NCBI GenBank assembly: GCA_964187785.1
Contig: OZ076409.1
Location: forward strand, 33,544,001-33,608,000
Source: Amphiscolops sp. MND2022
Lineage: Eukaryota
DNA: 64,000 bases
Direction of reading: 5' to 3'
Positions 8,191 to 61,488 of this stretch are shown here, in pieces (position 1 is the stretch's first letter; every line of letters starts with the position of its first letter). Both the position numbers and the translations under genes were made by a program. The notes under the pieces were generated by a model. It was not told where the DNA came from. It made no database searches and worked only from the letters and a program-made list of their open reading frames with translations.

Positions 8191-8224
8191 GAGGAATGAT
8201 GAATTATAAAAATGTTATAATAAT

Positions 8225-13114: not shown

Positions 13115-13117
13115 TTA

Positions 13118-13925: not shown

Positions 13926-13949
13926 TTATTAAGATGAAAAAGTTGAAAA

Positions 13950-24438: not shown

Positions 24439-24719
24439 CGGAAGAAACGATCATAATGGTGAAAACCACTTCTCTTAAAACCTAGTAGAAGTGGAAATAA
24501 TTTTTGAAAATTTCGCATGATTTCATTGATTTTTGGTGCAATTAAATTCACTTCAGTGCTCAAACTTTCTCGTTTCTTTGAAAGTCAGTATTTACATCTA
24601 CCTTCAGTCTGAAAATCAATATTTACATCTACCTTCCCAACTGATTAGCAGTCTGAAAGAATTTCGTTTGAAAATCAATATTTACACCTACAGAGTGAAA
24701 TTCACAAATATTTAGCAGT

Positions 24720-34862: not shown

Positions 34863-35692
34863 ATGTCAATACAGATCGACGTAGAAACACTTATCCGCCT
34901 AGTCATTGCAATGTATGAGTCTTCGGATGAAGATATGGAGATCGACACGCAATCAACAACTGTGATCGTCCAAAGTCATGACGGGGACAGTGACGTAGAG
35001 TTAATAGCTTGCTACATAAAGATACCAGTGTTCCCCCCTCAATCAGTAGCGGGACAAGCGATGACTCTAGACTTTAACGCATGCAGAGAAGAACTGGTTA
35101 AGCCTTAGTATGGACCGTCAGGATCAATTGACTCCTCATGGGTAATTGTAGCCGGATAGAATCTATTCCTTACTCGCCTTTGTCACCCCCTTTAATTGAT
35201 CAGGGGCCTTCAACCAGAGCGAATTATGCACAGTGGTCCACGGAGCCAGAGGGCGAAGATGCGTGGATGACAAACCCGCACATAGCAGGATTGACAAAAA
35301 GTGCCAATGGAATCTGTGGCCAGTCAAATTACACTCAACACAGCGATTGCACCGTATGTGGAACATCATTCGCTACGATTCAGGAAGAAATTACCCTTGG
35401 GTATATGGAGAAGACACACGTGCCAGAAGAAATTAACGCCCAGATAATCCGCAGAAGAAATGCATTTCAAGCTGGCATGGGAGCAGGTATTTTCGTTTTA
35501 GTCCCAGGAGGAGTGTCGCAGGCTGCCGCCTGTGACGGAGTCTTTTATCAAATATCGGCAGGAAACAAAGCACCCAACCCCTCCCCCGGGGGTATTGCCA
35601 ATTTGAACTATAAAGTCCAGCAGACGAGCAGCTTTGGCAAGAAAGGAGCTAATTGTACCACGGGAGACAGAAAGTCGACACGACTAAAGTAA
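34863..35692 (+). pseudogene. Extra sense ORF of element A, running into the 3' LTR
   Basis: ORFs 34863-35108 and 35138-35692; CTVC motif; RRRNAFQAGMGAGIFVLVPGGVSQAAACDG shared with element B. Confidence 0.65.
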
Positions 35693-37340: not shown

Positions 37341-39075
37341 TGTCGCAGGCTGCCGCCTGTGACGGCGCAAGAGACCAGGAGATTATCCCAGGTACTTTGC
37401 CAACATTTTAATTACAAACTAGCATACTTTTAGTAAAACTCATATGCATTTTTCTTTATTGATCTTTTTATAGTTTTGTACCTTATCGGAATTTGTATTA
37501 GTCTGTTAATAGTACGATTTGGCAAACCCAAATCAAATTGCTAAATTGAAAGGCGCGGTAGGAATCAAATCAATATAAGTTGAGTACAACTATACAGCAG
37601 TAACGGAAACGTGTTCAAGTGACGCTAATTTCAACTCCAAAAACGTCACTTGAGCACGGAGCATCATCCAATCGAATTGCTTCATTTGCAGTATTATAAA
37701 TATTTTCATCCAGTGGTTGCCGAATAAGGCCTGTTTGCTTAATATGGTTGTTTTCAATCAGTACTCTAGTCAAACGTCAGGTTCCTGCTATTTTGTGTAA
37801 AGTGAAGATGTGATACCAATTATGTTTATAATTGACCAGTATCATTGTGTTTGCGCTTCTTGTACTAAAAAACCCTTTTTGTGCAGTATTATCCACTAAC
37901 ACTCTAGATTTAGAATTAATAGACAGCTAAAACAATTTGCCTATTTTTTGCCGATGCTCATTCAATTTTGGCCTATTCCGGCCATTTTGTGGAAAGTGCT
38001 TTTGCTCTGATCTTAATATAGTAGTAAATTGATAAACTGGATTGTGTCGAAATGTTACAGTAGCTTATGCATGTACTATTGTATTATCACTCCTTGTTAA
38101 ATTCATCAGTGTTCGCGTGGTGGCACGCGTCAGCACCGCATTCCGATGATATAACACTGCAAACCGTTAAAAGCTAGTGATATTTGTTGACACTCTAGTG
38201 TATATGTTTTCAATGATAATTTGTTTGAAGTTGCGGTGTAAACAAAATACCTCTTGCTTGTTGCTTGTGAACTTCCCAAAATATGTAGAATATCGGGAAA
38301 GTATTTTAAGGTCATGTAGCAAGTGATATTGTACGAATGAGAAGAATGTGACAGTCATGCCTTAGTAGGTATAAATACTCTTCACTCACTTGGGTGAGAC
38401 ACGACAGTGTACACTCAAATTGAAAGACGATTCCTCCAAACTCACCAAACATAGTTTTCCGATCTGAAGAAGTTCAAATATTATTCCTCGGACATTCTAA
38501 ATGCCTACTACCAGCGAACAAAAGAAAACTAGGAAGTCAAGAGAATTAGAGATGCTCTCTGATGTTGAGAATCTAGACATAATGCTTGGTGAAAACCATT
38601 TTGATACAGTAGAAAGAGAAGAAAGTTTAACTAGCAACCTTGCTAGAAGGCCTGAAATTGTCGATAGCAAAAACTTTGAAAACAATAATGAAAATACGTA
38701 TCTGAACTCAGGAGTTATCAACCCTGGTATTAACTACGATCAAAAATCAGCAAGTGCCAACTCTAGTGCTGAGAATAATAGATTGTCAAGTGAATTGAAC
38801 ACCAGGATATCTAGGGAAATGGATGAGATGATGAACGGTGTCAGAATCCAAATCCAAAAGGCCATTAACGATGCTATTAGCAATCAGGTTTTACCCCAGA
38901 TTCAAAATGTCATCATGGCTTGTTCAGGATATTAGACCAAGAAAGGAAGGAACGTTCCGACCGAGGGACCGGAAACTAATACCGAAGTTCTGCGAAACGA
39001 AAAGGCCAGAAACAATTCGAAAAAAGCTTGTCCAAAACCGTCTTAGTGACGGAGCCATAGATAATGCTTACGACA
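37341..39075 (+). repeat. 5' LTR of element B (1735 bp)
   Basis: TGTCGCAGG...TTACGACA; TATA box GGTATAAATA at about 38368; gag ATG at 38501. Confidence 0.9.
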
Positions 39076-41442: not shown

Positions 41443-42403
41443 TGTTGGTGCCAGTCAATTGCGAGATCAGAAACTCAAACTCGAACGTGACTGATGAAAC
41501 TTATAACTCAAAACACTTAGAAACTTTATCAAGGTTTAAGTTGGAAAAATACAAGTCTTAGCAAAAATGACCCTATGTAAAAAAGGGCCACCCCCCCGTC
41601 CCGGTAAACCACTCATTCAATCACCTTGAAACTTGGCACACGTATAGTAGTGGTGCTACGCTAACTTTTCACTCGAAACACCGAACCCCGTATCTTCTCT
41701 GGGTTCCGAGCAATTAACACCCAAAGTGACCTAGGTCGGACCCCATGAATTACCCAATTTTGATGTATTAATTATTATGTTATTTTCTCATATGACCTTG
41801 AAGGAAATGTAACTCTGTTGAAATTAATGATATTTACATTGTGTAAACATACCTTTTACCCCACCTGACCAACATGCCAAAACCACCACATCGTTTGTTT
41901 ACTTAGCCAATAACTTCATTTTATGCTTTAAATGTCATTTATTTATACAACATATTTCAACTGATATTTGCTTATATTTACTGTAGAATTGTAAACGATA
42001 TGTATACCAATATTAGATAGAGATTTTCTCCACTGAATAGCTATAGTCAAGTTGGGTCTCAGGACCGCGAGACTAATAAATCAACTTCTCAATCTTCACA
42101 ACTTTTCGCTAGAGTTGGAGCGACTAAGTAGCTACTCTCATAGTTGGAGAGCCGGAGCGCGTGAAGATACGGTGAGGGAAGTGTGTACGGATCACATCGG
42201 ATCCAATTCAGTACAAAGAGGAATCGCAGGAGATTCCACGGGTCACATCGGACCCATCAAGCCAAAAGATACAGTCCTTTAAAACAAGAAACCAGGAATT
42301 GTTTAGTGACGGTCCACAGCACTAAGCAACGGATCAGGGCGGCGTAAAGCTTGTCAAGCCTCAGCGCAGGATAAGGGCAAGCAGCCGTTTTATTTGGTCC
42401 GCC

Positions 42404-42800
42404 GACCCGGACAACTCGTTGGTGGACGACCCGGACAACTCGTTGGTGGACGACCCGGACACCTCGTTGGTGGACGACCCGGACTAGAAGTAGAAGACGA
42501 CTCGTTGGTGGACAACTGAGAAGATTGCCCAAGAAGAACAAGTGTCTGGATCTTGGAGTTGCTGATTTTGTGTCTCTGGGAGATTGGGCTACTGTGTCTC
42601 TGGGAGATTGGGCTATTGTGTCTCTGGGAGATTGAGCTACTGTGTCTCTGGGAGATTGGGCTACTGTGTCTCTGGGAGATTGGGCTACTGTGTCTCTGGG
42701 AGATTGGGCTACTGTGTCTCTGGGAGATTCGGCTACTGTGTCTCTGGGAGATTGGGCTATTGTGTCTCTGGGAGTTTGGGCTATTGTGACTTTGGGAACT
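42404..42800. repeat. Two 24-bp tandem arrays in the BEL 5' leader
   Basis: GACCCGGACAACTCGTTGGTGGAC x3+ (42404-42515) and TGTGTCTCTGGGAGATTGGGCTAC x~9 (42570-42800). Confidence 0.93.
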
Positions 42801-42823
42801 GAGTTCAATCAAGAAGAGAAGAA

Positions 42824-45800
42824 ATGGCTCAACCAAAACGGTTTGATATCAACAAAGTTGAAAATTTTCTGAAGAACTCTGCAGACGCGGCCCAAATTGT
42901 GAGTCATTGGAATGCAGCTTGCGAGCACGGCAAGACGATCAGAGCAATTGATGAAAACCTAGCTAGGAATGATGACAACAAACAGATAGCAGAGCTTCTG
43001 TTACGACGAATAGATGTCATAAACAGGCGAGAACGACTCTTTAAGGCAATCCAAAATGCAATCAAAATCAAGTACCAACCCCAGATACCCGAAATGTTCT
43101 CAACAGTGATCCAAGCGATGAAGAGCCGATTTGTTGAGTTGCAGCGACAAGACTCTAACACTGGAAGGGTGATAATACTGATGTCAGCATTGCAAGATGA
43201 AAATCAGATACTAAACTATTTGGATCTTGAAGAGAAGAAACGTGCTATTGATGAAAGAATCGCCCACAACGAAAAGTTGCGCGACGAACGAATTGAAAAC
43301 GGCGAGGACGCCGAAGAAGATTATGCAGCAGCATGTCAGGAATTGCTTCACGAGAGGTCTGACCTCAAACTGAAAATTGAAGCTCTCCTGAAGTCAAGAG
43401 AAACTGGAGCCATTTTGCGAAGCCTTGAAGACGCAGAACAAAGACTAGCAGACGTTCGCGCAAGCGTAGCCGCAGACAAATCAAGTAAAAATGGCACTTC
43501 ACCACAAAAGGAGCCGCAACCAGACGATGAGCAAAACGAACATGATGGTCACAACGCGGATGACAGTCAAGAGCCAAGAAATGGAGCTAGATCATTGCCA
43601 ATAGAAGAATTGAGCATACATTCGCGAAGTGAAAGAGCCAAAAGCAACAAAACCTCAGTGATTTCAAAAACATCAAGTGCAAGACGAGTTATGCATTTAG
43701 AACTGAAAGCTCTGAAAGAGCACGAAGAACTTCAAAAGCGCCTGGAGAAACTGGAACGAGAAGCAAAACAACTGGAACGAGAGGCGAAAGAAAAGGAGAT
43801 AGCAGACTTGCAAGAAGAGGTGGCCCGCAGGGCCAGAATTGCTGAAAAGGAAATAGAGATGGCGAAAGTTCCGAGTAGTTGTGGGTCTAGTTTCAGAAGT
43901 ATCTCACCAGTCGAGACTCCAGACGACAATCTGACGAAAGTCTCAGATTGGATGGACAAGACCGAAGAAGCTGAAAACGTGGCATCGCCGATTAACGTGC
44001 CATCTGTATACCAGCAAACGTCCGTCTCAGCACCAGTGACTACAGGACAATTGATGCAAGGAGGACAACGCTCCTCGCAAGTGAGGGACTTGAAGTCCTC
44101 ATTGAAACCGGTCATGTCCACAGAGACCGCTCTGCGAGATATTGGAAAGGACAGAACAAAGACTGTCATAGATGTGGGCAGTCAAAGAGCAACAGCAAAA
44201 CCAGAAGTGAAATTCGCCTCATCGAAGCCGTCGATGACTCTCAGTGCAGACCAGAATCGGTTACCACCTAAGTTTGGAGGCATTCCGAGTGGTGCATTTC
44301 AAGTACCACAGCTTGCGAACACGCCGAAGCCGTATCTGCCTCGTCAAGGGCATAACATAGTGTCAAATGCGAGAGATGACTATTTCATCAGATCCAGCTT
44401 GCCAAAATTGAAGCTGGCAGAGTTTTCAGGTGACCCATTGGAGTGGCCAGAGTGGTCACAACTGTTTCAAGCAACCGTCCACGCAGCAAACATGGACGAC
44501 AGTGTAAAGATGAATCACCTGAAAACAATGGTCACGGGCAAAGCCAAAGAGGCGATTGCTGGCCTTGGGTACACCGCGGAGATGTACAATGTGGCGTGGA
44601 ACGTTCTAGTTCGAAACTTTGGAAAACCTCAAATGGTTGTGAATGCTCAACTAAAGAGAATTTACTCCTTTCCACCGATGAAACCTTATGATGGAGCCGC
44701 ATTGATCAAGTTTGCGAGAATAGTGTCGAGTTGCGTGAATGTTTTGACACAATTCAACTACGTGGGAGACCTAAACTCAGAAGGAGTTCTGGGCAGTGCC
44801 ACAAGGAAGTTAACGCTAGACATGAAAACGAAGTGGCTCACTCATGTGAGGCAAATGAACCTGTATCAACCTGGACTCGCTGTGTTCAGTGAATGGCTAA
44901 ATGATATAGCAGATGTGCAGGATGAATTGCTTTTGTCTTCAAACCCGAATGCTGATCGCGCGAAGTCGAGCTACAAAGAAAAGGCAAAAGGCTCCACGTT
45001 TGCAACGTCAACAACAAACACAGCCAGTGACAACTCGAAATACCAGCGAGAGTGTGCGCTGAAAGATGGCAAACATCCAATATGGAAATGTGAGAAGTTC
45101 AAGAAGATGAACGTCGAAGAAAGAGGACAAAAGGCGAAAGAGTTGAAATTGTGCTTCAAATGTTTGTCAGACGCACATCAGATGAGAAATTGCTCTGGTA
45201 GACTCTGTGACGTCAATGGTTGCGGAAAACCTCATCACCGATTGCTACACAGACCATACAAGAACGTGGAACAAAAGAAAAATGTTGAAAATGTTGAGGA
45301 GGTTTCAAATCTGTCCCCTATGAGAAGCAGTGGAGTGCTTCCCGTCATTCCAGTATCGATAGAGAGTGGGAGCAAAAATGTGAAAACGTTCGCTTTGTGT
45401 GACTCTGGAGCAAGCCTGTCCTTTGTGGACGAGAGCCTGATGAAAGCGCTAAATCTGACGGGACAGCCAGTGGATCTGAATGTTGCAGGGATTCATGGAA
45501 CGTCAGATATTAGTAGCAAACGACTTCGAGTCAAGATTGGAGATAAAGACGGAAAGGTCAAAGAAGATATCATGGCCTATAGTCATCCCAACGTAAACGC
45601 AGGAAATCGAACGTACAACATCAAGAAATTGAAGGAAGCATATCCTCACCTGTCAGTGTTGAGGGATTCTACCATCAACTTGGGAGAAGTGAAAGTCATC
45701 TTGGGCCAAGATTGCTACCACTTGCATAGAGCAATCGACTATAGAAAGTGTGGAAACGCCAAGCCCTGGGCAGTGCGAACGAAGCTGGGATGGATGCTCA

Positions 45801-48800
45801 GTGGACCATTGCCTCAACAAGAGACAGCAAAGCTCGCAACTGAAAGTCTAGTTGCAGCAGAAGTGGACCCGTTAGCGGATCAAGTGAAGTCTTGGTGGAG
45901 CATGGAATCGTTTGCTTCCAACTGCAGCGTATCCGGAAGGTCCAAGGAAGACGAGCGAGCCCTCGAAATGCTCAAAGCAACCACGAAGTTCGACGGAAAG
46001 AGATACGAGGTCGGGTTACTTTGGAAAAATGCAAAGCCGCATTTGCCAAACAATTACAGTTCAGCAGTAAGTCAATTGAAGTCTCTCGAGCGCCGACTGG
46101 AAAAGGATGCGAACTTGAAACAACGCTACATAGAGACAATTGATGTGGACGTACAAGAGGGATTTGTGAGAATTCTGGATGAAGCAGAGCTTGAAAACAC
46201 TAAATCAGACCTTCAGTGGTACGTTCCACATCTTCCTGTGCTGAACCCGAACAAGCCGGACAAAGTGAGACGAGTTTGCAACGCTGCCTCAAAGTTCGGA
46301 GGTGTTTCACTTAATGATAACTTGATGGCCGGTCCAGACCTCCTACAATCGCTGATAGGAATTATCTTCAGATTCAGGGAAAAGGAAATCGCCCTGACAG
46401 CAGATGTCGAAGCGATGTTTCTCCAAGTGAAAGTACCCCCTACTGATTGCAAAGTTCTCAGATTTTTGTGGAGAGAAAACCACACTGAACCTATCTCTGT
46501 GTATGAATATGGAAGACACATTTTTGGAGCTAAGAGTTCGCCAACATGTGTCAACTACGCTTTGCAACAAGTCGGACGAGACACCAGAGATGGCAATGGG
46601 ATGGTTGCAAATTTGATCAACAGAAATTTCTATATGGATGACTTTGTGAAGTCAGTAGCTTCAGAGGAAGAAGCTGCGGAAGTGTATAAATGCTTGCGAA
46701 AGTCCTTAGCAGATGGTGGATTCCAACTAACCAAATGGATTTGCAACTCAGAGAAAGTGATGGAAGAAATATCCCCGGATGATAGATCAGTCGCGCTAAG
46801 CAAAACATTCGAAGCTGAACCCTTGGCACCCTCTATCTTGGGACTCCAGTGGAATGTGGAGTCAGACAGTCTTGAGATTTGCCGCGGTACGGGAAAAGAG
46901 GTGCCTGCCAAGATCACTCAGAGAATTGTTCTATCCCACGTATACTCTGTGTTTGACCCGTTGGGACTGTTTCCCCCTTTCACAGTCAGGATGAGATTGT
47001 TGCTCAAAGGAATTTGGAAGACACATGGGCAATCGTGGGACGAAGAGTTATCTCCAGAAGACGGGATAGCATTCAAGGATTGGGCATCGGAGTTGAATCA
47101 CATGAATGAAATGGCTATCAGAAGAAAGTATTTATCGAAAAATGCTGAAGTAGTGGACTTGCATAGTTTCGCCGATGCGTCCCTGGAAGCAACGTGCATA
47201 GTTGCCTACTTTCGAGATCAACAAACTGGAGAGCTTGCCTATGTGGTAGGGAAATGCCGAGTAGCGCCAATGAAGCAACAATCAATTCCCCGACTAGAGC
47301 TACAAGCAGCTATGTATGGAACCCGATTAAAACAACTGATCGTAAACGAACATGACATTCAAATTGAACGAACTTTCTTTTGGACGGATTCGACAACTGT
47401 TTTGCAATGGTTGCATGGAGCTGACAAGAAACAACCGGTGTTTGTAGCGAATAGAGTCGCCGAAATCCTTGACAGTTCAACCATTGATCAGTGGAGATAT
47501 GTCGAAGGAATCTTAAACCCTGCCGACATCGGAACAAGAGGAAAATCTGTCCATGAATTAGAAAAGAGCGAGTGGTTCACAGGGCCGGCATGGCTTCGAG
47601 AGAAAGAAGATGCTTGGCCACAAACCTCACCACAGTTGTTTCAGCAGAAAACAGAAGACATAGAGCAAGTCTTTGAAGTCGTGCCAGAAGAAAAGAACAT
47701 TGATTGGGAGAAGTTCGGTTCTTTCAGAAGAATGACCCGGATCTTCGCCTATTGCCTTCGGTTCAAATCAAAAATCAAAGGAAAGGTGGTGATAACAGAA
47801 GAAATGCAGCAAGTGATCCGACTGTTACTGCGGAAGAGCCAGATGGAAAGTTTTGGTCCAACATATCAAGCATTGGCCGCAGGTAAACCAATGGCTGCAT
47901 CTGATCACTTGAACAAACTGTCACCATTTATGGAAGATCAGAACCTAATGCGATTAAAAGGACGACTACGTCATGCTGATGTGAGTTATGAAATGAAACA
48001 TCCAATTTTGCTATCTGCGAAGCATCCAATAGTGAGGAAATTGATTGAAGATGCGCATGAAAGAAACTATCACGAAGGAACAGAGTATGTTCGCAGCATT
48101 TTGCAGCAAAATTACTGGATAATTGGACTCCGAAACGCGCTCAGAAATGTGAAGTTGAAGTGTGTTAAGTGCAGAAAGCAACAAGTTGGAGGAGTTCAAC
48201 CTTTCATGGCAGACTTACCCAAAGAAAGATTGGAAGAAAGAGTTTTCCCTTTTGCCAATACTGGAGTAGACTATTTTGGACCATTCGAAGTGAGATTCAT
48301 GAGGAAATCAATGAAACGGTGGTGTTGTCTATTCACATGTTGGACAACAAGAGCTGTGCATGTTGAAGTTGTGCCCAACCTGGAAGACGACGCATGTCTT
48401 GCTGCAATTACGAGATTCATCGCAAGAAGAGGAAAACCGAATATCATTCTAAGTGATAATGGAACAAATTTTGTGGGTGCAGCAAGGGAAATGCGAGAAT
48501 GGATAGAAGCTTGGAATCAATCAGACATTGAGCAGTCTTTGGCTCAAAAGCAAATAAAATGGAAGTTCAACCCCCCAGGAGCTCCGCATTTTGGAGGTGT
48601 TTGGGAGCGAATGGTCAGAAGCTGCAAGAATGCTATGATGGCAATTGTAGGAAACAGAACACTGACAGATGATGTATTATTCACAACAATGTGCCTGGTC
48701 GAGCAGATATTGAATTCGAGACCTCTGACTAGTGTCAGTGATGATCCTGAAGATTTGGAAGCTTTGACTCCAAACCACTTCCTGCTAGGACGTGCAAGTC

Positions 48801-49225
48801 CAGCAACCCCATTTATTCCTGACGCTCAGCGATATACCGATCTGAGAAAAGTATTCAGACTATCACAAGCATACACAGACATGATTTGGAGCAGATGGAA
48901 TAGAGAATATTTACCACAATGGAATGAGAGATCTAAATGGAATAATGAAGAAGTTAGACAACTGGAAGTCAATGATTTGGTTTGGATAGTGGATGAGAAT
49001 GTAAAAAGAGCACACTACAAGATGGGTAGAATGTTGGAAGTCTACCATGGAAGCGATGGGCGAGTGAGATCAGCGCTGGTGAAAACAGAAGATGGAAAAC
49101 TCAAAAAACCAGTAGTGAAACTGGCACCCATGTTCTACGAAAGTGTTTTTCGGGAGAAAAACAGGGCCGGCAATGTTGGCGCCAGTCAATTGCGAGATCA
49201 GAAACTCAAACTCGAACGTGACTGA
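42824..49225 (+). CDS. BEL/Pao gag-pol polyprotein, 2133 aa, uninterrupted
   Basis: LPKLKLAEFSGDPLEW (Pao gag), triple Zn knuckle, LCDSGA protease, FYMDD RT, FADAS/PRLEL/WTDS/NPAD RNase H, GVDYFGP/SDNGTNF/VWERMV integrase. Confidence 0.97.
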   Translation: MAQPKRFDINKVENFLKNSADAAQIVSHWNAACEHGKTIRAIDENLARNDDNKQIAELLLRRIDVINRRERLFKAIQNAIKIKYQPQIPEMFSTVIQAMKSRFVELQRQDSNTGRVIILMSALQDENQILNYLDLEEKKRAIDERIAHNEKLRDERIENGEDAEEDYAAACQELLHERSDLKLKIEALLKSRETGAILRSLEDAEQRLADVRASVAADKSSKNGTSPQKEPQPDDEQNEHDGHNADDSQEPRNGARSLPIEELSIHSRSERAKSNKTSVISKTSSARRVMHLELKALKEHEELQKRLEKLEREAKQLEREAKEKEIADLQEEVARRARIAEKEIEMAKVPSSCGSSFRSISPVETPDDNLTKVSDWMDKTEEAENVASPINVPSVYQQTSVSAPVTTGQLMQGGQRSSQVRDLKSSLKPVMSTETALRDIGKDRTKTVIDVGSQRATAKPEVKFASSKPSMTLSADQNRLPPKFGGIPSGAFQVPQLANTPKPYLPRQGHNIVSNARDDYFIRSSLPKLKLAEFSGDPLEWPEWSQLFQATVHAANMDDSVKMNHLKTMVTGKAKEAIAGLGYTAEMYNVAWNVLVRNFGKPQMVVNAQLKRIYSFPPMKPYDGAALIKFARIVSSCVNVLTQFNYVGDLNSEGVLGSATRKLTLDMKTKWLTHVRQMNLYQPGLAVFSEWLNDIADVQDELLLSSNPNADRAKSSYKEKAKGSTFATSTTNTASDNSKYQRECALKDGKHPIWKCEKFKKMNVEERGQKAKELKLCFKCLSDAHQMRNCSGRLCDVNGCGKPHHRLLHRPYKNVEQKKNVENVEEVSNLSPMRSSGVLPVIPVSIESGSKNVKTFALCDSGASLSFVDESLMKALNLTGQPVDLNVAGIHGTSDISSKRLRVKIGDKDGKVKEDIMAYSHPNVNAGNRTYNIKKLKEAYPHLSVLRDSTINLGEVKVILGQDCYHLHRAIDYRKCGNAKPWAVRTKLGWMLSGPLPQQETAKLATESLVAAEVDPLADQVKSWWSMESFASNCSVSGRSKEDERALEMLKATTKFDGKRYEVGLLWKNAKPHLPNNYSSAVSQLKSLERRLEKDANLKQRYIETIDVDVQEGFVRILDEAELENTKSDLQWYVPHLPVLNPNKPDKVRRVCNAASKFGGVSLNDNLMAGPDLLQSLIGIIFRFREKEIALTADVEAMFLQVKVPPTDCKVLRFLWRENHTEPISVYEYGRHIFGAKSSPTCVNYALQQVGRDTRDGNGMVANLINRNFYMDDFVKSVASEEEAAEVYKCLRKSLADGGFQLTKWICNSEKVMEEISPDDRSVALSKTFEAEPLAPSILGLQWNVESDSLEICRGTGKEVPAKITQRIVLSHVYSVFDPLGLFPPFTVRMRLLLKGIWKTHGQSWDEELSPEDGIAFKDWASELNHMNEMAIRRKYLSKNAEVVDLHSFADASLEATCIVAYFRDQQTGELAYVVGKCRVAPMKQQSIPRLELQAAMYGTRLKQLIVNEHDIQIERTFFWTDSTTVLQWLHGADKKQPVFVANRVAEILDSSTIDQWRYVEGILNPADIGTRGKSVHELEKSEWFTGPAWLREKEDAWPQTSPQLFQQKTEDIEQVFEVVPEEKNIDWEKFGSFRRMTRIFAYCLRFKSKIKGKVVITEEMQQVIRLLLRKSQMESFGPTYQALAAGKPMAASDHLNKLSPFMEDQNLMRLKGRLRHADVSYEMKHPILLSAKHPIVRKLIEDAHERNYHEGTEYVRSILQQNYWIIGLRNALRNVKLKCVKCRKQQVGGVQPFMADLPKERLEERVFPFANTGVDYFGPFEVRFMRKSMKRWCCLFTCWTTRAVHVEVVPNLEDDACLAAITRFIARRGKPNIILSDNGTNFVGAAREMREWIEAWNQSDIEQSLAQKQIKWKFNPPGAPHFGGVWERMVRSCKNAMMAIVGNRTLTDDVLFTTMCLVEQILNSRPLTSVSDDPEDLEALTPNHFLLGRASPATPFIPDAQRYTDLRKVFRLSQAYTDMIWSRWNREYLPQWNERSKWNNEEVRQLEVNDLVWIVDENVKRAHYKMGRMLEVYHGSDGRVRSALVKTEDGKLKKPVVKLAPMFYESVFREKNRAGNVGASQLRDQKLKLERD

Positions 49226-50126
49226 TGAAACTTATAACTCAAAACACTTAGAAACTTTATCAAGATTTAAGTTGGAAAAATACAAGTCTTAGCAAAAATG
49301 ACCCTATGTAAAAAAGGGCCACCCCCCGTCCCGGTAAACCACTCATTCAATCACCTTGAAACTTGGCACACGTATAGTAGTGGTGCTACGCTAACTTTTC
49401 ACTCGAAACACCGAACCCCGTATCTTCTCTGGGTTCCGAGCAATTAACACCCAAAGTGACCTAGGTCGGACCCCATGAATTACCCAATTTTGATGTATTA
49501 ATTATTATGTTATTTTCTCATATGACCTTGAAGGAAATGTAACTCTGTTGAAATTAATGATATTTACATTGTGTAAACATACCTTTTACCCCACCTGACC
49601 AACATGCCAAAACCACCACATCGTTTGTTTACTTAGCCAATAACTTCATTTTATGCTTTAAATGTCATTTATTTATACAACATATTTCAACTGACATTTG
49701 CTTTATTTACTGTAGAATTGTAAACGATATGTATACCATTATTAGATAGAGATTTTCTCCACTGAATAGCTATAGTCAAGTTGGGTCTCAGGACCGCGAG
49801 ACTAATAAATCAACTTCTCAATCTTCACAACTTTTCGCTAGAGTTAGAGCGACTAAGTAGCTACTCTCATAGTTGGAGAGCCGGAGCGCGTGAAGATACG
49901 GTGAGGGAAGTGTGTACGGATCACATCGGATCCAATTCAGTACAAAGAGGAATCGCAGGAGATTCCACGGGTCACATCGGACCCATCAAGCCAAAAGATA
50001 CAGTCCTTTAAAACAAGAAACCAGGAATTGTTTAGTGACGGTCCACAGCACTAAGCAACGGATCAGGGCGGCGTAAAGCTTGTCAAGCCTCAGCGCAGGA
50101 TAAGGGCAAGCAGCCGTTACACAGTG

Positions 50127-53100
50127 AAATACGTCAAACCGGTTTATCTGGTATCGACCTGGCATCTCTAACAAAACGACCAAGAGCAGGCAGCTCATTA
50201 TGTTAGTTGTCTCATCAAGACCAATAAAAAACCTCAAAACTCGGAAAATTATTGGTTCCCAACTCCGGAAAACCCAGGAAACCCAGATGAACGTACGCCA
50301 ATCCAGAAAAGGATGTTACGGGAACTACAGGCCCTACAGGACCTAAAGACCCTTGATCCTACTACGGCTGAGGAGTCTAGAGCAAAGTACCTAAAAAATT
50401 TTGATCGGAAAGATTCCACTCTAGCTACCGATGAAAAAGGAAAAATTGAAGAATTCTTAGTGACATTTCATGACATCTTTGCGGGACATAGATTCGACAT
50501 AGGCTTGAACGAGGAATTCAAGGTGAAACGGACCCCTAAGGACGAGTCCCCAGCCTACAGCCAGAGCCTCCCAGCACCAATAAACTTGAAGCAGGACATT
50601 TCAGTTGAGTCAGCCATTTTGCACAAATATAGAATCATTTCTACTTTAACATTTTCAAAGTATGCTAGTCCAATATCTGCCCAGAAGAAGCCAAATAGAA
50701 AACTCCGACTCTTGGTTCACGTGACAAACATCAACAACCTAACCTCGGATGAATTTATAAACAATAATCACCCTCTCAGTACTCTAGTCGATGCTGCCCA
50801 GCATATGGCAGGCGAAAAGTTTTCTTGCAAACTAGACTGTTCGCAGGCGTCTCATTGCCTCCAGATGGCTGACCAACGATCAATTGAAATTTTGCCTTTC
50901 GATTTCGCCAGCCGCACATTTGCATACAGACGCTTGGCACAAGGCCTTAGTCGCGCGCTGTCCGCATTTTTGAGCTTTATGAGGGAATACCTTGATTAGG
51001 TTATCAAAGTGGATCAGTGTGCCCAGTATGTGGACGATATCAGCATCGCAGCCAACGATGCTGATCACCTCATTGCCAAACTGAGAGCGGCTTTCAAATG
51101 CAGGCATTGAATTTACGATGCACAAATGTTATTTCGGTGCAACAGAAAGTGATATCTTTGGACGAACAATTACCCCACAAGGCAATAAACCCCAGAAACA
51201 GAACGCACAGAACTTCCTTGAACAAACCAAAGATTGTTCCGAGATTGTCTGAACGCCTTGCTCCGTTTTACAAGATACTTAAAAGTGACAAAAAAGTCCT
51301 CGTATCGAAAGAATTGGTTCCACAATTTGAGGAAAAAAACAGAGCACTCGACAAATGTTGCGACTTGGCCCTACAGCAACCAATTTCAAACAAAGAAATT
51401 GCACTAATGACTTTGGTGCTGCTGGATATGCAGTCCTAATCGAAGATGATCCCAATCAGAAATTCACATCAATACGCAAATCATATGTACCGGTCGCTTA
51501 CGAATCAAATGATTTCACCCCAGCCGAGATAAAGATGTCCATCCACGCAAAAGAATTTCGTGCGATTTATTTTGCTTTCAGAGAATTCGGGCATATTTTC
51601 GAACCGGTCATTATCCTAACCGACAACAAAGCCGTAACCAGATTTTTCCAAATGAAAATTGTACCTCCAGCCCTGTGCAATGCTTGTGTTTACGTCATAC
51701 AATTCAATTTTGTCATAGCCCACATTCCAGGAACACAGAACACGGCAGCAGAATTATTGTCCCATCTGGAAGCTGACCCGAAGGACAAACTAGTCATGAA
51801 AATCAGAGAGGACGTTCAGACGGTCCCAATTGAAATAAATGTCCAATCGGCAGGAGTCTCACAGGAAGAACAAACCGTCTATACGATTGATGACGATTAG
51901 ACAGAAGAGCAATTTTGGGCAAGCAAAGAAGCAATCAGGGAGAATCCCGCCACAGAAAAACCTGCCGTAACAATACAAAGACTGTCCACAAATTTGGTCA
52001 AACATCAACCTGAAATCCAAGCCCGACTACGGAAGACGAACCAGATGAATATTGAGCAATCCAAAGATGCAGTATTACAGCAATTGAAGGCAAAACTCCT
52101 TCATGAAGACTTTTCAGAAAACGTACAGCAACAGGATGATCGATACAGACATCATGCAAACATCTTAGAACGTCTTCTAGTCACGACAGATATCCTGACC
52201 AGTCAATACGTCGACGAAACATGGAATGTGAAAAATCATCAGATCCTTCTCCCGCAACATTTACTACAAGAATTGTTTCAGTCCCTTCACGGGACAGCTC
52301 ACAAGCACCCTGGCATACCAAAGATGTTACAAGAGATCAGGCAGATGTATTACTACCCTAGCATTTCGAAATACGTTAAAAAGTAGGTAGAAGGGTACGA
52401 ACATTGTGCAAAGGACAAACAAATGCAACAATCACGTCTGAACTACTTAACCTGCCGGAATGGGACCTTGGACCCGCAGACGCTATGCAAATCGATCTAT
52501 TGCCGAATCTTCCCCCAAGTGGAGGATTTGAAATTGTTCTAACTGCAATCGATCTCTTCTCTCGATATTTGTTCGCTTATCCACTTTCGGACGCATCAGC
52601 AAACAATGTAGTAAAAGTGCTCATTGACATTATCACTAAACATGCGTATCTACCAACAACGCATATTTCCAACAAAGGGACTGCATTCATTTCCACGATT
52701 ATTGCGGAGATCACGCAGATTTTAGGAATCATACTCAAATGTGCAGCGACAAAGCACTCGCAAACGATCGGGAAATGAAAAGAGCGGACACATGCTTCAC
52801 TCAAGACGAATCTCAAAATGGCATGTCGGGAATATCGCTGTCAATGGCATAAATATTTGCCATTAGCAGTTCTAAATCACAATACGAGCCATCACTTGAG
52901 TATTGGTTGTGAACCAACAAGAGTATTCCATGGAAGAATTCCATATAATATCTTGGATCACAAGCTTGGAAATAATCCAAACGAGCAGATGAATCCTTCG
53001 ACCGAATTTGCGGGAGAAATCCAAACTGGACAAAAATCCTAATTAACAAAACAAAGCAGAGTATAATGCAGTCTTATATCGATACAAGGAACACTACGAT

Positions 53101-53871
53101 CACAGAGCGAAAGCTGCTCCACTCAAGGAAAGCGATAACTGTTTTGTATTGCAGCTAAATGCGGTCATCAAGAATCAAAAATTCCATTGAGAGATTACCG
53201 TTGAGTTGGACCATTTATAGTCCAAAAGGTACTACGTAATCAGAACTACATTGTATGTCGGCTCAATACAAATAAAACTCCAATATTGCATCGAATTCGC
53301 CTTAAATGATTGTCATTCCGCAAGACGACTCGAATACAATAACGTGGGGAATAAACTTTGGTGACCAGCTAGCTACATGAGGCAACGAGCCTACGCCGCC
53401 TAGCTTGCCGAACGGCGACAGGACAGTTACGTCAGATACGAATTTAAAGTACACACGCGAGAATAAAGCGGAGAACATAATCACCACTGATAGTCCGAAT
53501 GACGTCAACGACGCGGCGGAAAGACGAAAATGAAGAATGAAAAATGACGTCAGCAACTGAAATGAAGCTAATAAAGCAAATAAAGCAAAAAAAATGAAAA
53601 CTCTGATTGGCCGGATTCGGCCGCTGACCACAAAAATTACGAACAATATTCGCCGGGTCTGTCCGAAAGACAAGAAAATGATGCCAATTGTTTGGAAGAA
53701 AATTCCTAACATGAAGACGACGCACAACGTTCTCCAAAAAGGGGGGATGATATTATCGTGCCCGAAATATCTCAAAGCGATGAAAGAAATGAAAATCTGT
53801 GTCCTAGAGGTGGGAGATATAATCTCAGGCCTAATCCTAACCCAAACTACTCAAAAGACATTAGATACTGA
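50127..53871 (+). pseudogene. RT, RNase H and integrase of element B (3' part)
   Basis: KLDCSQA, QYVDD, TDNKA, H..AHKHPG, MQIDLLP; C-terminal LRPNPNPNY*; many stops and frameshifts. Confidence 0.9.
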
Positions 53872-54157: not shown

Positions 54158-57100
54158 TTAGTCTTTAGAAGAACATGGCTGAGCGGATCCAACAGTAGGA
54201 TCAGCGACGGATGAAGTACACGACCGGGATGCTTTCCGTTCCATCTTTTTCCGCTTGCTGCTACTAGGGGCCGATGGCGTTTTCATCGGCAACGGATCCC
54301 GAATCTCCTGTCTCAATGCAGACTAGCGCCTTCTTCGGAGTAGGGACAGCAACTCGGTATGAAGCTAGCAGAGATTCATAAATCTTGGAGCGGCCAAAAG
54401 TGTCAAAATAATTCCAGGGGCATAGTCTGCGGAAAAAGCGGATCGCCGAAAGGAGGCCGAAAGAAAAGAAAATCTGTTCAAATAGTCGTCATCGCTGCAA
54501 AAGACTACAGAATCCCGTACATTGGCAAAAGAAATCTGGCAAGGGAGTATGACGTCGGTAAATCGGACTCGGCGTCCCGTAGTAGTGACGTTCTCTAAAG
54601 TAACGTCGGGAAAAACTGGACTAACTGTAATGGAGCACAAACAGCACAAATTTAAAGCGTAGAGCAAATCTGCACGATCCTCCAGGAATTCGAGCCCAAC
54701 TAAGAACTCGATCAAGTCTCCGCAGATGCTGGTTACATCGAAATTGGGCCCATACGCAGTTCGTAAATGATTCAGCAACTGCATGTACCGATCCCGGCAC
54801 AAGGTCTCATTGGCGCTGGAGACACACGAGCGAAGAGCAAAGGTCCTGAGTACCATGTCAAAATGCCGTAACGCCACATCCGTCGGTCTCTTGAGCATTA
54901 TGAAAGAGTCAAAAGCAGCTAACCCCCCCATCACTATATTTGTAGATAATCCAGTTCGCTGCAAGACTTCATTGATCAAGAATTGGATATAAAGCTGACT
55001 GTCATTGATGAAGTCTGTCTTTACAGTCTCAGTGGTAGCTTGCATCGCGGATCGTTCAGACGTCTTGCCGAAATGCATCCCTTGGGCTCGTGCCTTGCTA
55101 GCTGCTGCCACTTTGCTTGTCAATTTTAGCCGGACCAAGTATTCGTCCCCGGGCAAGAAGGTACCATCGCTGGTTTGGAAACGAAGAAGCAAAAACCAGG
55201 CATTCTCCAGGGCAGTGTCGGGGGTATAGACGTGAGAGCACAGCTGGCTTATGAACCTACTGACCTCAACGCAGAGGTAAAAGCAGGAATATTTTGTAGA
55301 TTCACAACGAAGCTGCTCACATCTAGAAAAAGAACCATGTCCGAATGAGGACAATGACAAAACGTCCATACTTTATCCGAACAAACTTACAGTCACGGAC
55401 AAGTCTGCTGAAGATTTCCAGCTTAACGACAAAAAACTCGTCGCAAATCAAGGACCACTCGAAGTTCTGTACCTGAAACAGGGATCCCATTAACTATTTG
55501 GTACAACTGTTATGCAGACAAGTAGGGTTGAAACCTAAAGTCGGATTTCTTTGACTGAACTAATGTGCGTGGACTAGATGAAAACTAACTCTGCATCGAG
55601 ATCCTTGACCTTCTCGTAGTGGAGCATGGGCTGTCAGGAATCGCAACATACACTTCCACTCATTGATGAGTTCCCAGCAGAGAGTGGAGAGAGTTGGGAC
55701 GTCGAGTTTGCAGGTAGTGACGGCCAATAAAACCCTGAGTATGAACCTAGTATATTAAAACTTGTTATGTCCCTTCACCCCCCTACCATTGCATTTTCAT
55801 GGGAAAAATCTATATCAACGACGCTCACCTTAGTGAGTTCAGGACGTATTATCCAGTCTGCGGCGCCCAAAGAGACCATCAAGGCTTGAAGTACGGAAAA
55901 AAATCTTGCCAAAGACGCTGTAACTTGATTCGTGCATTAGCCTCGCGAGCGGCAGGTGCTCAAATTGGAAGCAACTCTGAACTCTTTGGGAAAAGTATTC
56001 AGACTGGTCAATGGTCTTAGCAAAATCAACTTGGCACCCAGAGCAGGCTACTACATCGGGCCTCGTAGAGACTGCGGACAGGAACCGGGACAACGACCCA
56101 AGTTTCCCGGTCACATCTGTTGCTCGGAATGAGCTGCGGCAAATGAAGACTCTACAGAGCCCAGAATTCTTCCAAACTTTCACGGACATGTAATGATTGA
56201 CCCCTGCTGCTTCGAATTCAACTGCAACGAATTGTTGGGTAGCCACTTGTTCTGCGATGTCACTCAAAGCGCAGACGAAGAAATGTTGGAATATTGCCTG
56301 AAAAGAAACGGAATTCCTCAGTTTCTATTGGGACCAAAGAGGCAAGTTCTCTGGAAATTATACTTACTGTCATACGTTCTTCCCCCAGTCGGATTCTGTG
56401 ACAATAGCTTGATGGTTAGTGGAAGAACCCATTCGCGACCACAAGTTCATCAAGACCATCAGATCACTTTGAGTCTTCACGAAATCACCCACGAGACAAA
56501 GCTGGGTTTTGGATATAAATTCCGACGTCACCAGAGCGGTTCTGGAACCCTTGATTTAATCCTCGTAGAAAGATAATCTTTCCCCGATGTCCACTAGTTC
56601 CACAATGATGAAGCGGGGCATTTTGCAGTTCCTTTGCTAGTTCCATTTTGGTCGGGACTTTACCATTGCCACCGCGAAAACGGTGTTGCACCTTACCACT
56701 TACGGGGTCAATGCTCTTCAGATGTTCATATCGCCTCATGATCTCGGCGTAAGTGGCGCTCAGTCCGGTGATGCCTGAGGATCTCGCACGGGCCTTTTGA
56801 TTTAATCGAAAAGTTTTTCTTACATACATGGCACCAGACCATATAGGGGTTGTGGACTGGATCTGCGGGTCCAGAGATGAAGGACCTAGTCCACCCGATC
56901 TTCGAGAAAAATTCTTCTTGCAAGGGAATGCCTCGTCTGGTGAGCCTCTTATTCCCCTTTGGTCTTTTGGCCCTGGAAAAAGTTTCTGTGGAGTCTTGCG
57001 CTTGCTCTCTTATTGCGAGCAGAGTAGCGTCCTGGCTGCTGCACTCTGACGAATCAGGCTCAGCGGCCGAATCAGGCTCTCTCCATAGTATGACGATTCC

Positions 57101-58277
57101 CCTGTACCATCAGATGGTTGTTCATGCGGACCTGCTGTTGTTGAAGGATCATCGCCGCCTGACTCATTTGCTTTTGAGTCACTTGGAGCCCTTCGCATTG
57201 TTGTCTGGCAACGACCTTTGATTTGGAAACGGGCAGTTCGGGAAGGGCAGCAGTGAGGGACCCTCGGACAACATCAATAACCATGCGCTGCATGGTGGAA
57301 AACGACCTGCTGAATGTCTCATCTGGTAAGACACGAAGACGATGATATACCTGTGGTTCAGTGAAGGCGATCGTGGAGTGCCACACAGAAAGGCGGATTG
57401 GGGAGGCCTCTTCAAAGTATTCTTTCAGAATTGCTCTACTACGGCCGGAGAGGTCTGGAAGTTCGTCTCATACTGGCCGAGATTTGAAAGCGGAGCATTT
57501 GCTGGGCCCGGGAGTTTGTTCATCAGAATTTGTTTCATCTCCGACCTCAGTCCCGGATTCAATAGCAAAAGGATGGAAGCCATACAAGGCAATCCGATTG
57601 ATCTGACTAGTCTCCTCCATATTCTTTTCTTCCTCACTCTGGCCAGCTAAGAACTGTATTCTGGGGCCGCCTCCGGGCAAGGCTGGCACGTCAAAAACAG
57701 ATGAAACATTATCGTCATCAATCCTTGAAGGGGCAGTACTGACATTGGTTTGTCCTGGATTGGTTCTGTCCGGTAATTGAGACTCTGACGTAATAATGAC
57801 CCTGAGAGCAGACTCCAAGGCTGACAAATTGGTGTCAGGATTTCCTTCCTCCTCAGATAAGACAGGGGTACTTGAGCTTAGCTCCCCAGGAGTAAGCGCT
57901 GTCAGGACTGCGAGACTTGAATCCAAAAGTTCACTTGGGACCGGGGTTGTGCATGAATTTTCTTTATATCGCGAGGTAGACGATTGCATCTGCTCTATTC
58001 AGAGAACTACCGATTCTGTGTAAGTAGTGACATCAACGTCACTATCCTGGCTGTGAGAAGGACTGTCATGCTCGACCAATCACTGAGGTCGTAAAATTTG
58101 ATTGCTGATTTCCTCTGGTGGAAGACCTTCGGACTCAGCGACTGGGTTGTCAGAGGAAGCTGGTTTGCTGGCTTGGGATATGGTTGGTGGAGTCGTATTC
58201 TCCTTCGGCTCCACGAACTCTCTATCTAAACGAAAGAGAATAAAATTTAGCGGTGTGCTTCCTTGATATAAATCCAT
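54158..58277 (-). pseudogene. Antisense, intron-containing passenger gene of element B: low-complexity N-terminus, BED-type Zn finger, hAT-transposase-like body, basic C-terminal tail
   Basis: Collinear minus-strand ORFs (57468-57989, 56726-56923, 55839-56267, 54365-55369); WCHVCKKNFSIKSKGPCEILRHHRTERH; introns 56298-56367 and 55323-55390 (GTAAGT...TTTYAG); stop at 54158-54160. Confidence 0.78.
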
Positions 58278-59324
58278 TTACCGCGATCAGAAATCTTCCG
58301 GAAGTGTCTCCCAAACTCAAATGAAACGTGTTATCACGTGTCCAATGATGGAAACAGTAAGCGTCGAATGAGCAAATTCAATCCTGATCAAGTTGAACTA
58401 GTTCAAAAAGAAAAAAATGAAAATCCAAACAAACCAACCTGAGTCAGAAAACAAGCTGCTGGAGATATAGTCAATTGAATGACAATCCGAATAGGGACAA
58501 CTGCTAATGGGAAATTGGCCGGGTTCGGCTGCTAAGGGAAAGATGCTCCGGAATACTTCAAGGATGAAGTGAGCGACGAATATGAAGACGGATGTGGACA
58601 GATGTAGTAAACAAGAATACAAGTGTAAAGAGTTCGAATAATAATGGAATTAGAAATTAATCAAATTCAAAAGTTGAAGTTCGTGGCTGAGGAAATTACC
58701 AGACTAGTAGTTTATGTTTATTTACATATTTATAACTTTGCATGGAGTCTGCCAGCAAAATGTACAGGAGATTCTTCGTTATTTACAGCTTGATTAGTTA
58801 GTAGCCGATTATGGCCGTTTACCATGTTTAGTTTTGCCGTTTTGTTCTGTTACCCTTATTTATCTTAGTTAGAATTTTCGCCATATTTGGATACTTAGAA
58901 TTATTACTTCACGCCATTATATTATTCATTTTTCAGTTTTATTGAAGGTTAATTCTGAGTGACTGAAGCCATCTTGAAGGAAGTTGTTCGACTCGTGCCG
59001 TTAATTACACTCAAGCTCACTGTTATTTACCCACTTAACTCAAGTTATTTGTTGATGAGAACTTAGAGACTCTTAACACCTCTTCTGATGATGGTAGCGA
59101 GAGGGGGCAAACACCGCGAAGTCAGAGGATGCCGACTCTCAGAAAACTTCCATTCAGAATGTTTACGACGGATCAGGACGTTTAACCGAAAGTTCTACCG
59201 CCAAATTGAAACTCCGGAAAAATCCTGACTTGGCCTGAAACAGAATTCTATTAAATTTATTCTGATTTGAATCTCGCTAGTAATAAGTCGCCTCTCGAAC
59301 TTCAAACTAGCTAGGAAAATAATA

Positions 59325-59798
59325 ATGCGAAGATTTAATCTTGCTAGACAACCTTTCATCATCGATGGAGCAGATTCTGGAGACTCAGATAATTCAGTTA
59401 CCTACATCTCGAGTGGCGATCCCGATTCATCGGACGTATGGGAATCCTACTGCTCCACAGACACAGAGCAAGAAGTAGCCCGCATCGAAAGAGAGGTCAT
59501 CGCCAGCCCAATATTGATCGGTGGGCGGATAATGACTGTGGAAGACGAGCAAGAGGAGTTCCTTGCCCCAGTTCCAGCGGACAACTAGATGTGGTTATAT
59601 ATGTGCCGGTCTACCCCACGAGATGATCCAGAACAGATAACGAGGCTCAGAAGGGAGGCATTCGAAAACGGGCTCAATACCGGCTGTATTCTCTTGATAA
59701 CACCCGCAGTGTCACAGGCGGCAGCTTGTGACGGTACAGCTATACCAACTACCGCAAGAGACCAGGAGATTATCCCAGGTACTTTGCCGACATTTTAA
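59325..59798 (+). pseudogene. Extra sense ORF of element B, running into the 3' LTR
   Basis: ORFs 59325-59588 and 59589-59798 in one frame; LRREAFENGLNTGCILLITPAVSQAAACDG is homologous to the element A ORF. Confidence 0.65.
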
Positions 59799-61488
59799 AT
59801 ACAAACTAGCAAACATTTATTAAAACTCATATGCATTTTACTATATTTATCTTTTTATAGTTTTGTACCTTAACGGAAATCGTATTAGCCTGTTAATAGT
59901 ACAGTTTGGCAAATCCAAATCAAATTGCTAAATCTAATTGAAAGGCGCGGTAGCAGTGAATCAAACCAATGTGAGTTGAGTACAAGTATACGACAGTAAA
60001 GGAAACGTGTTCAAGTGACGCTATATGCTACTCTGAAAGCGTCAATTGAGCACGGAACATCATCCAATCAAAATGCTTCGTTTCCAGTAATAATAATGCT
60101 TTCATCTAGTGATGGTCGAATAAGGCCTGTTGGCTCAATATGGTTGTTTTTAATCAGTACTCTAGTCGAACGGCCGGTTCCAGCTATTTTGTGTAAGGTG
60201 AAGCTGTGATACCAATTATCTTTATAATTGACCAGTATTATTGTGTTTGCGCTTCTTGTACCAAATAACCCTTTTTGTGCAGTATTATCCATTATTACTC
60301 TAGATTTAGAATTAAGAGACGGCCAAGACCATTTGACTATTTTTTGCCGATGGCCATTCAAGATTAGGGATTTGGCCTATTCCGGCCATTTTGTGGAAAC
60401 TGCGTTTGCTCTGATCTTATTATAGTAGTAAACTGATAAACTGGATTGTGCCGAAATGTTACATTAGCTTATGCATGTACTATTAAATTTTCACACCTTG
60501 TTAAATTCTTCAGTGTTTGCGTGGTGGCACGCGTCAACATCGCATTCCGATGATATAACACTGCATTCCGTTGATAGCTAGTGATATTTGTTGACACTCT
60601 AGTGTATATGTTTTCAATGATAATTTGTTTGAAGTTGCAGTTTAAACTAAATACCTCTTGAAATGTTGCTTGTAAACTTCCCAAAATATGTAGAATATCG
60701 GGAAAGTATTTTAAGGTCATGTAGCAAGTGATATTGTACGAATGAGAAGAATGTGACAGTCATGCCTTAGTGGGTATAAATACTCATCACTCACTTGGTC
60801 GAGACACGACATTGTAAACTCAAACTGAAAGACGATTCCTCCAAACTCACCAAACATAGTTTTCCGATCTGAAGAAATTCAAAGATTATTACTCGGATTT
60901 TCTCAATGCCTACTACCAGAAAACAAAAGAAAGCTAGGAAGTCAAGAAGACAAGAGATGCTTTCTGAGATTGAGAATCTAGACATAATGCTTGGTGAAAA
61001 CCATTTTGATACAATAGAAAGAGAAGAAAGTTTAAATAGCAATCTTTCTAGAAGGCCTGAAAAAGAAGATAGCAATAACTTTGAAAACGATGATGAAAAT
61101 ACGTATCTGAATTCAGGAGTTATCAACCCAGGTATTAACGCCAATTACGGTCGAAACTCAGTTAGTGCCAACTCTAGTGCTGAGAATAAAAGATTGTCAA
61201 GTGAATTGAACTCGAGGATATCTAGGGAAATGGATGAGATGATGAACAGTGTCAGAGACCAAATCCAAAGGGCCATTAACGATGCTATTTTCAATCAGGT
61301 TTTACCCCAGATTGAAAATGTCATCATGGCCGGTTCAGGATATTAGACCAAGAAAGGATGGAACGTTCCGACCGAGGGCCCTGAAACTAATACCGAAGTT
61401 CTGCGAAATGAAAAGGCCAGAAATAATTCGAAAAGTGAGCTTGTCCAAAACGGTTTCAGTGACGGAGCCATAGATAATCCTTACGACA
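59710..61488 (+). repeat. 3' LTR of element B (1779 bp)
   Basis: TGTCACAGG...TTACGACA; roughly 90% identical to the 5' LTR by eye; contains a gag N-terminal copy (60906-61346). Confidence 0.92.

Follow-up and report, generated by a model that had tools for sequence, protein, structure and literature searches.

We analysed a 64,000-nt stretch of the Amphiscolops sp. MND2022 genome (assembly GCA_964187785.1, contig OZ076409.1, positions 33,544,001 to 33,608,000), hereafter the window, which is crowded with retroelements and contains three long terminal repeat (LTR) pairs as seen by self-BLAST. One of these pairs delimits element B, a gypsy-type retrotransposon in which the space from the decayed pol to the 3' LTR holds a gene on the opposite strand. 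A preliminary description, made from the letters alone, had placed a minus-strand gene of ~4.1 kb here, and both the gene and its exact interval were confirmed: it runs from window position 58277 to 54158, start codon to stop codon, convergent to pol. Because residue 1 of P0001, an intact related first-exon open reading frame (ORF), aligns at 58277 (tblastn) and a TAA stop codon is found at 54160-54158, the interval 54158-58277 represents the entire gene. The peptides quoted at that time (FISGP..C..CK..FS..SKG..EILRHH, FVAVEFE..MSVKVW and L..L.LCCLC) were all found in the translations. What had been overlooked is that four GT-AG introns, all conserved, interrupt its coding sequence.

The exon structure was established by reading L014, a copy elsewhere in the genome, and by aligning nine natural copies, including that of the window. 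The five exons measure about 680 codons, 162 codons, 45 codons, 82 nt and about 375 codons, and they are separated by introns of about 70, 105-115, 120 and 70-80 nt, the first three in phase 0 and the fourth in phase 1. Across the nine copies, 52 of the 54 splice dinucleotides of introns 1 to 3 are canonical, with both GT and AG of intron 1 present in 9/9; the two exceptions are the intron 2 acceptor of the window (TG) and the intron 3 donor of L009. Intron 4 reads GT[ATG]AGT...AG in most copies. Exons are 72-86% identical between copies versus 50-75% for introns, which are near saturation and, as is plain in the poorly conserved intron 1, contain indels whose lengths are not divisible by three. 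A copy of the A type, the lineage of the neighboring element A, has GT-AG introns at all four of the same codon positions and in the same phases as the B type, at a protein identity between the two types of only 31-39%. Some database members do without intron 1 (P0230) or intron 2 (P0212). The best matches of P0230 in the Amphiscolops genome reach no more than 39-44% identity, so the family is present in at least one other genome. The window copy has further damage besides its mutated intron 2 acceptor (AG to TG): exon 1 contains in-frame stops and shifts frame at least three times, while exon 5 begins with a 7-nt gap, shifts frame near 54464 and has 54365-55372 as its longest open piece. An AATAAA hexamer lies ~190 nt past the stop in L014; none follows the stop in the window copy or in the A-type copy on contig C11, so the hexamer was not taken as a poly(A) signal of the gene.

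For comparison we took one younger copy of each type from this genome, the B-type one on contig C4 (loci L013 and L014) and the A-type one on C11 (loci L039 and L040). The former is 16,081 bp long, with LTRs of 1749 bp that are 98.7% identical and end in TG..CA, and with the target duplication AGTCT. The latter has the same layout, with LTRs of 1554 bp (98.6% identical) and the target duplication ACCTC. On their plus strand both encode gag (DUF1759, zf-CCHC), an aspartic protease, RVT_1, RT_RNaseH and Integrase_H2C2; after pol come the antisense gene on the minus strand and then a short sense ORF (ORF3) that enters the 3' LTR. The domain order is that of Ty3/gypsy LTR retrotransposons, and an LTR pair with TG..CA ends and a short target duplication, as is usual for such elements, was found as well. 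This LTR pair and duplication surround both pol and the antisense gene, which therefore constitute one mobile unit.

The same arrangement recurs in other copies. Among 12 last-exon loci, a set that includes the window's own and two, L008 and L009, that fall on a single local tandem array, the integrase C-terminus is convergent to the gene and ~250 bp from its stop in 11, with L003 as the exception. The array itself (C5:60771387-60775806) is made of ~1.77-kb units that hold the integrase end and most of the last exon. The window and L014 share no inverted repeat at matching places around the gene; one inverted pair (15 nt, 87%) roughly brackets the window gene and is without a counterpart in L014. 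Hence the gene belongs to the retroelement and has been inherited, with its intron positions, across two deeply diverged lineages. This bears out the earlier proposal of a family-level, vertically inherited element component. Terminal inverted repeats (TIRs) of the gene's own, as independent hAT insertions would have, had been named as a refuting observation; the copies share no flanking inverted repeat.

The coding sequence is under strong purifying selection at the protein level. The ratio of nonsynonymous to synonymous substitution rates (dN/dS), a calculation already proposed in the preliminary description, is 0.03-0.16 over exons 2-3 by the Nei-Gojobori method, for the 12 of 21 pairs with a computable dS; in the remaining nine, the proportion of synonymous differences exceeds 0.75 and dS is saturated. 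Between subfamilies, differences are concentrated at third codon positions (e.g., 48/30/142 at the first, second and third positions). The gene is also abundant. In the 1.07-Gb genome the last exon gave 5,326 first-look candidates and A-type exon 1 gave 9,294, numbers that are not to be equated with copy numbers. All 120 scored places for the last exon match at E <= 1e-121, and 62 scored places match for A-type exon 1, several of them 98-99% identical and with open 717-aa frames. With a cut-off of E <= 0.001, a search of a 1.84-billion-protein library with exon 2 found 238 clusters formed at 50% identity, and almost all of the best 150 of these are exon-sized ORFs.

Exon 1 of element B encodes, after the start codon, a long low-complexity N-terminal part, a finger near 56800-56900 and a linker. 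Of 85 exon-1 ORFs, 81 retain the finger, CxxC-x16-HH-x4-H with RWRYEHL after it, and it occurs in P0230 and P0324 as well. It had been described as a BED-type finger; the motif is well conserved, but the Pfam zf-BED profile gave no match at E <= 1 or 5 on the pieces from the window and L014, and one distant member matches zf-C2H2_ZN292 at 1.8e-4, below the family cut-off. For exon 2, an AlphaFold2 model of the L014 exon built from 61 sequences (mean predicted local distance difference test score, pLDDT, 76.8) shows a helix at residues 2-21, strands at 23-31, 34-43 and 46-55, a helix at 62-75, a strand at 81-86 and a helix at 90-98. Exon 2 is thus predicted to form the N-terminal half of an RNase H-like core, with three antiparallel strands followed by a helix, a strand and a helix. 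FVAVEFE...MSVKVW, previously compared to hAT RNase H strands, corresponds to strands 1 and 2 of this predicted fold. The top structural neighbors of the model all have RNase H-like or actin-like folds, and the Foldseek matches, weak as they are, consist almost entirely of RNase H-like proteins; the hAT transposase Hermes has the highest query template modeling score in Foldseek (0.43, among tied best structural matches) and the longest structural alignments, which include the helix before strand 1.

Whether this core could still cut DNA was judged from the same model, which was used to place the catalytic positions without an alignment to hAT and in which the third residue is not placeable. 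Strand 1 carries a glutamate (E in 39/48, D in 2/48). The canonical second aspartate appears to be absent because strand 4 is followed by S-G-C, with an acidic residue at the glycine in only 2/61; D or E occurs in 35/61 five residues beyond the post-strand-4 position. A canonical D-D-E catalytic triad was not found. A non-catalytic protein, as the preliminary description had suggested, is plausible on these grounds, though not proven.

Protein language-model neighbors in the ESM Atlas point to hAT. For the finger-to-exon-2 part of P0230, the nearest clusters that have a Pfam family include DUF4371, FAM200-ZBED5_RNase-like, ZBED1_RNase-like, DUF659 and zf-BED (scores 0.87-0.93). For exon 5, 22 of 30 neighbors fall in the Dimer_Tnp_hAT set, together with FAM200-GTF2IRD2-like (0.90-0.93). 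The neighbors of each half are those of the matching half of the hAT superfamily, which makes chance less likely, even if each lead is weak alone. The L..L.LCCLC stretch had been likened to a hAT dimerization region. None of 46 last-exon members matches Dimer_Tnp_hAT (PF05699), and the sole, insignificant hhalign alignment of the last exon (0.06%) does lie on the hAT C-terminal motif. The tail of the protein has a basic run in 69 of 120 last-exon ORFs.

Our preferred reading, to which we give a probability of about 0.55, is that this five-exon gene is an accessory gene of a ~16-kb Ty3/gypsy lineage and encodes a probable hAT-derived nuclear DNA-binding helper. LTR elements replicate via a sense genomic RNA. 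Antisense introns lie the wrong way round in that RNA, cannot be spliced from it and are retained in every new insertion. A spliced mRNA would come only from an antisense transcript, with an internal promoter likely within the 0.9 kb that separate the ATG from ORF3. The product would be a protein of ~1,300 aa composed of a disordered N-terminal part, the finger, the RNase H-like core, a helical region and the basic tail. Its ancestor was most likely a hAT-type DNA transposase, whose canonical catalytic aspartate after strand 4 would have been lost, and the present protein is most likely a nuclear DNA-binding helper rather than a DNA cutter. Such a helper would control transcription or silencing of the element, or steer its integration, roles that are not told apart here. 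More tentatively, we suggest that a DNA-transposase gene may have been taken over as a spliced antisense accessory gene whose binding module picks integration sites or counters silencing, while its introns spare the genomic RNA.

Several observations weigh against this reading. The window copy of the gene is decayed and dead. Pfam yielded nothing meaningful on the window pieces, the L014 pieces and 20 distant members, and no family recurs among the 61 exon-2 or 46 last-exon alignment members. Profile searches of Protein Data Bank sequences with the exon-2 and last-exon alignments gave no match at E <= 10. An hhalign comparison with six hAT transposases from this genome, whose identity was confirmed by Pfam domains, returned probabilities of 0.2% and 0.06%. 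The best Foldseek E-value was only 0.015, and Hermes ranked 33rd with E 0.13. For exons 4-5, the model consists of helices throughout and is of low quality (pLDDT 53.9; its first sequence contained an in-frame read-through of intron 4), and nothing informative matched it. By the tool's own account, 4-10% of shuffled proteins reach ESM Atlas scores >=0.9. No sequence method thus ties the protein to hAT, to which language-model neighbors alone point, and that it binds DNA, acts in the nucleus and benefits the element is in each case an inference. DUF4371 (PF14291) had no match in the genome, a result of little weight since the control was equally silent. Overall, the claim of a hAT-transposase derivative, which the language-model neighbors and the RNase H-like fold favor and the empty Pfam, hhalign and structure-database profile searches do not, stands at roughly two in three.

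One should also consider that the gene is an integral and selected accessory gene of other than hAT origin, its finger a generic C2H2-like one and its core derived from a host gene or from a different superfamily of transposases or nucleases. We regard this as unlikely, though worth keeping in mind. The language-model neighbors of two separate halves are the corresponding halves of hAT-derived proteins, and the Hermes alignments are the longest and take in the helix before strand 1. The order of finger, RNase H strands, helical region and C-terminal stretch is in addition the domain order of hAT transposases.

The main functional rival to a helper is an antisense unit that restrains the element, either through a transcript that pairs with the genomic RNA and leads to small-RNA silencing or through a protein that acts as a copy-number repressor. 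A stretch of 4.1 kb of the genomic RNA would find its complement in the antisense transcript, and control mediated by double-stranded RNA is suggested as a possible role of plant antisense ORFs in a review (PMC7264820). However, purifying selection on amino acids (dN/dS as above) is unneeded for a purely RNA-level role, and both gene-bearing lineages have many copies, some of them 98-99% identical, which makes a restraining unit rather improbable. Still less credible is a transduced passenger gene without a role, carried by chance. LTR elements are able to transduce host sequences (PMC7264820, PMC11963269), but the transduced genes treated in the consulted portions of these reviews are present in one or few copies and usually in sense orientation, whereas here open frames have been retained across lineages with 31-39% identical proteins, with a third-codon-position bias and a low dN/dS. 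A last reading has hAT DNA transposons nesting in two gypsy elements on separate occasions, for which the many genuine hAT elements of the genome (150 scored Dimer_Tnp_hAT matches) might provide a source. It is already contradicted by the lack of inverted repeats at matching places in the window and L014, by a position, orientation and set of intron positions shared across both lineages and 11/12 loci, by LTR pairs with 5-bp duplications that surround the gene, and by genuine hAT transposases of the genome that are not detectably similar to it.

The accessory gene proposed here has its closest parallel in plants. Ty3/gypsy elements with antisense ORFs between pol and the 3' LTR include maize Grande (gene23), rice RIRE2 and Silene Retand (ORF4), as covered in the consulted text of two papers (PMC7264820, PMC11963269). 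According to the same sources, these ORFs occur in all or most copies of a family, in unusually long elements; Grande has been shown to use an internal promoter of its own for its antisense ORF, some of the plant products are nuclear, the function is unknown, and a recurrent domain is Transposase_28 (PF04195), carried by Retand (PMC7264820, PMC11963269). Introns are nowhere mentioned in the main texts on the plant ORFs (PMC7264820, PMC11963269). The earlier statement that antisense extra ORFs are known in Retand and Grande elements is correct in this respect. Like these elements, the Amphiscolops lineage has an extra antisense gene at the same place in most family copies; unlike them, it belongs to an animal rather than to plants, and the gene contains four conserved introns and encodes a predicted RNase H-like core. 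Transposase_28 had no Pfam match on the gene pieces or on the 61 and 46 family members. The arrangement is thus known so far mainly from plants and without introns, and the present case adds an animal and introns.

Retroviral antisense genes offer a second comparison. HTLV-1 HBZ has a spliced form, and its fold is that of a basic leucine zipper. HBZ and HIV-1 ASP resemble the present gene as minus-strand coding genes of reverse-transcribing elements with an antisense promoter, which in the human T-cell leukemia virus lies in the 3' LTR (PMC7264820, as far as consulted). They differ in being short, in overlapping or adjoining env and the 3' LTR, in their unrelated sequence and fold, and in having neither an RNase H-like core nor a multi-intron structure. 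With Hermes and the ZBED, FAM200, GTF2IRD2 and DUF4371 proteins, the Amphiscolops protein shares the order of parts and the language-model neighbors of both halves. It differs from this group in the lack of detectable sequence similarity, of TIRs and of 8-bp duplications, in its strand 1 glutamate and the S-G-C after strand 4, and in that its gene is borne by a retrotransposon and not by a host genome or a DNA transposon.

Animal LTR elements with family-level extra ORFs are also found in bdelloid rotifers, where Juno, Vesta and others keep captured third ORFs of types that include env, DEDDy, GDSL, CC and TM (PMC5408684); the ORF types differ from ours, and in the consulted text of that paper 'antisense' occurs once, for small RNAs, and 'intron' and 'transposase' never. 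In an annelid LTR survey, antisense ORFs appear in the introduction only, as far as its consulted text shows. Titles and abstracts revealed no gypsy element of an animal whose gene is described as antisense, as bearing introns or as resembling a transposase, in a literature that leaves Repbase reports and most subscription journals uncovered, so that an earlier description is possible. The animal case combines very many copies, clear purifying selection and a recognizable fold, and offers a case from nature in which introns in antisense orientation pass through reverse transcription. Should the hAT link be true, a retroelement would have domesticated a DNA transposase, a step usually taken by a host. 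One protein and one element would also form a tractable system for asking what accessory genes do.

Table 1. Coordinates of the antisense gene and of the elements around it in the window.
Feature	Position	Strand	Basis and remarks
Exon 1	56368..58277	minus	tblastn of intact relatives, ORF pieces; boundary from alignment to copy L014
Intron 1, GT..AG, phase 0	56298..56367	minus	9-copy alignment
Exon 2	55829..56297	minus	Mapping and AlphaFold2 on the homologous L014 exon; contains FVAVEFE...MSVKVW
Intron 2, GT donor, acceptor mutated to TG here	55725..55828	minus	9-copy alignment
Exon 3, 45 codons	55590..55724	minus	Reading of L014 and alignment
Intron 3, GT..AG, phase 0	55473..55589	minus	9-copy alignment
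Exon 4, 82 nt	55391..55472	minus	9-copy alignment; A-type copy has the same boundary
Intron 4, GTAAGT..TAG, phase 1	55323..55390	minus	9-copy alignment
Exon 5	54158..55322	minus	Includes the L..L.LCCLC stretch, the basic C-terminal tail and TAA 54160-54158
Element B 5' LTR	37341..39075	plus	Self-BLAST; starts TGTCGC, ends ACA
Element B decayed pol (reverse transcriptase, RNase H, integrase)	50172..53871	plus	ORF pieces, tblastn
Nested BEL/Pao element interrupting B	41443..50118	plus	LTRs 41443-42389 and 49174-50118, 99.3% identical
ORF3 remnant, sense, element B	59271..59588	plus	Between the antisense-gene start and the 3' LTR; no known family
Element B 3' LTR	59753..61488	plus	Self-BLAST
Element A, other lineage	25335..37060	plus	LTRs 25335-26899 and 35514-37060, 84.8% identical
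Exon 1 remnant of the antisense gene, element A	31866..33774	minus	tblastn, ORFs

The LTRs of element B are 89.6% identical; self-BLAST gave 37366-39075 for the 5' LTR, and its true 5' end at 37341 came from reading the ends (Table 1). The flanks, GTAAT and GTATT, resemble a 5-bp target duplication with one change. The integrase C-terminus maps to 52974-53871 on the plus strand (tblastn). A gag ORF at 38501-38935 in the 5' LTR has counterparts at 60873-61346 in the 3' LTR and at 4018-4630 of L013; the gag frame begins within the LTR and crosses the LTR end and the primer-binding site, and the start of gag is therefore present in both LTRs. ORF3 copies were found in the window (59271-59588 and 34818-35692) and in L014 (6434-7302), extending into the first LTR bases. 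ORF3 is kept in both lineages with 34% aa identity between them and matched no Pfam family.

Element A had been said to hold a clear homologue of the antisense gene at the same position. The homology is real (43.7% identity over 174 aa at 32390-31869, E 1.4e-43, with weaker matches up to ~33596 and an 'MDSY' start near 33740), but exon 1 alone remains: pol ends at 31879, directly against the exon 1 remnant, which shows that exons 2-5 and the integrase C-terminus have been deleted.

Element B is interrupted by a BEL/Pao element, a group known, to our knowledge, only from animals. This insertion is young and has an open 2140-aa gag-pol at 42803-49225 (Peptidase_A17, RVT_1, rve, DUF5641), with a 24-nt tandem repeat at 42503-42838 just ahead of the ORF. 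Elsewhere in the window, positions 1-14000 are AT-rich (GC 0.30-0.33) with minus-strand ORFs, and matches to a Pox_A32-type packaging ATPase (5124-5861, E 2.5e-8) and to an Endonuclease VII motif (ORF 10644-11834, E 1.5e-5) suggest that this segment is a Polinton/Maverick-like or virus-like insert. Positions 15059-15423 hold a 73-nt tandem array. Between 16292 and 23292, a 3.5-kb unit is tandemly duplicated (98.4% identical) and contains shorter repeats of its own at 17659-18037 and 21086-21530, and a run of N marks an assembly gap at ~24250-24450. At the other end, a minus-strand ORF at 62407-63999 with Integrase_H2C2 and rve, which belongs to another retroelement, runs past the window end.

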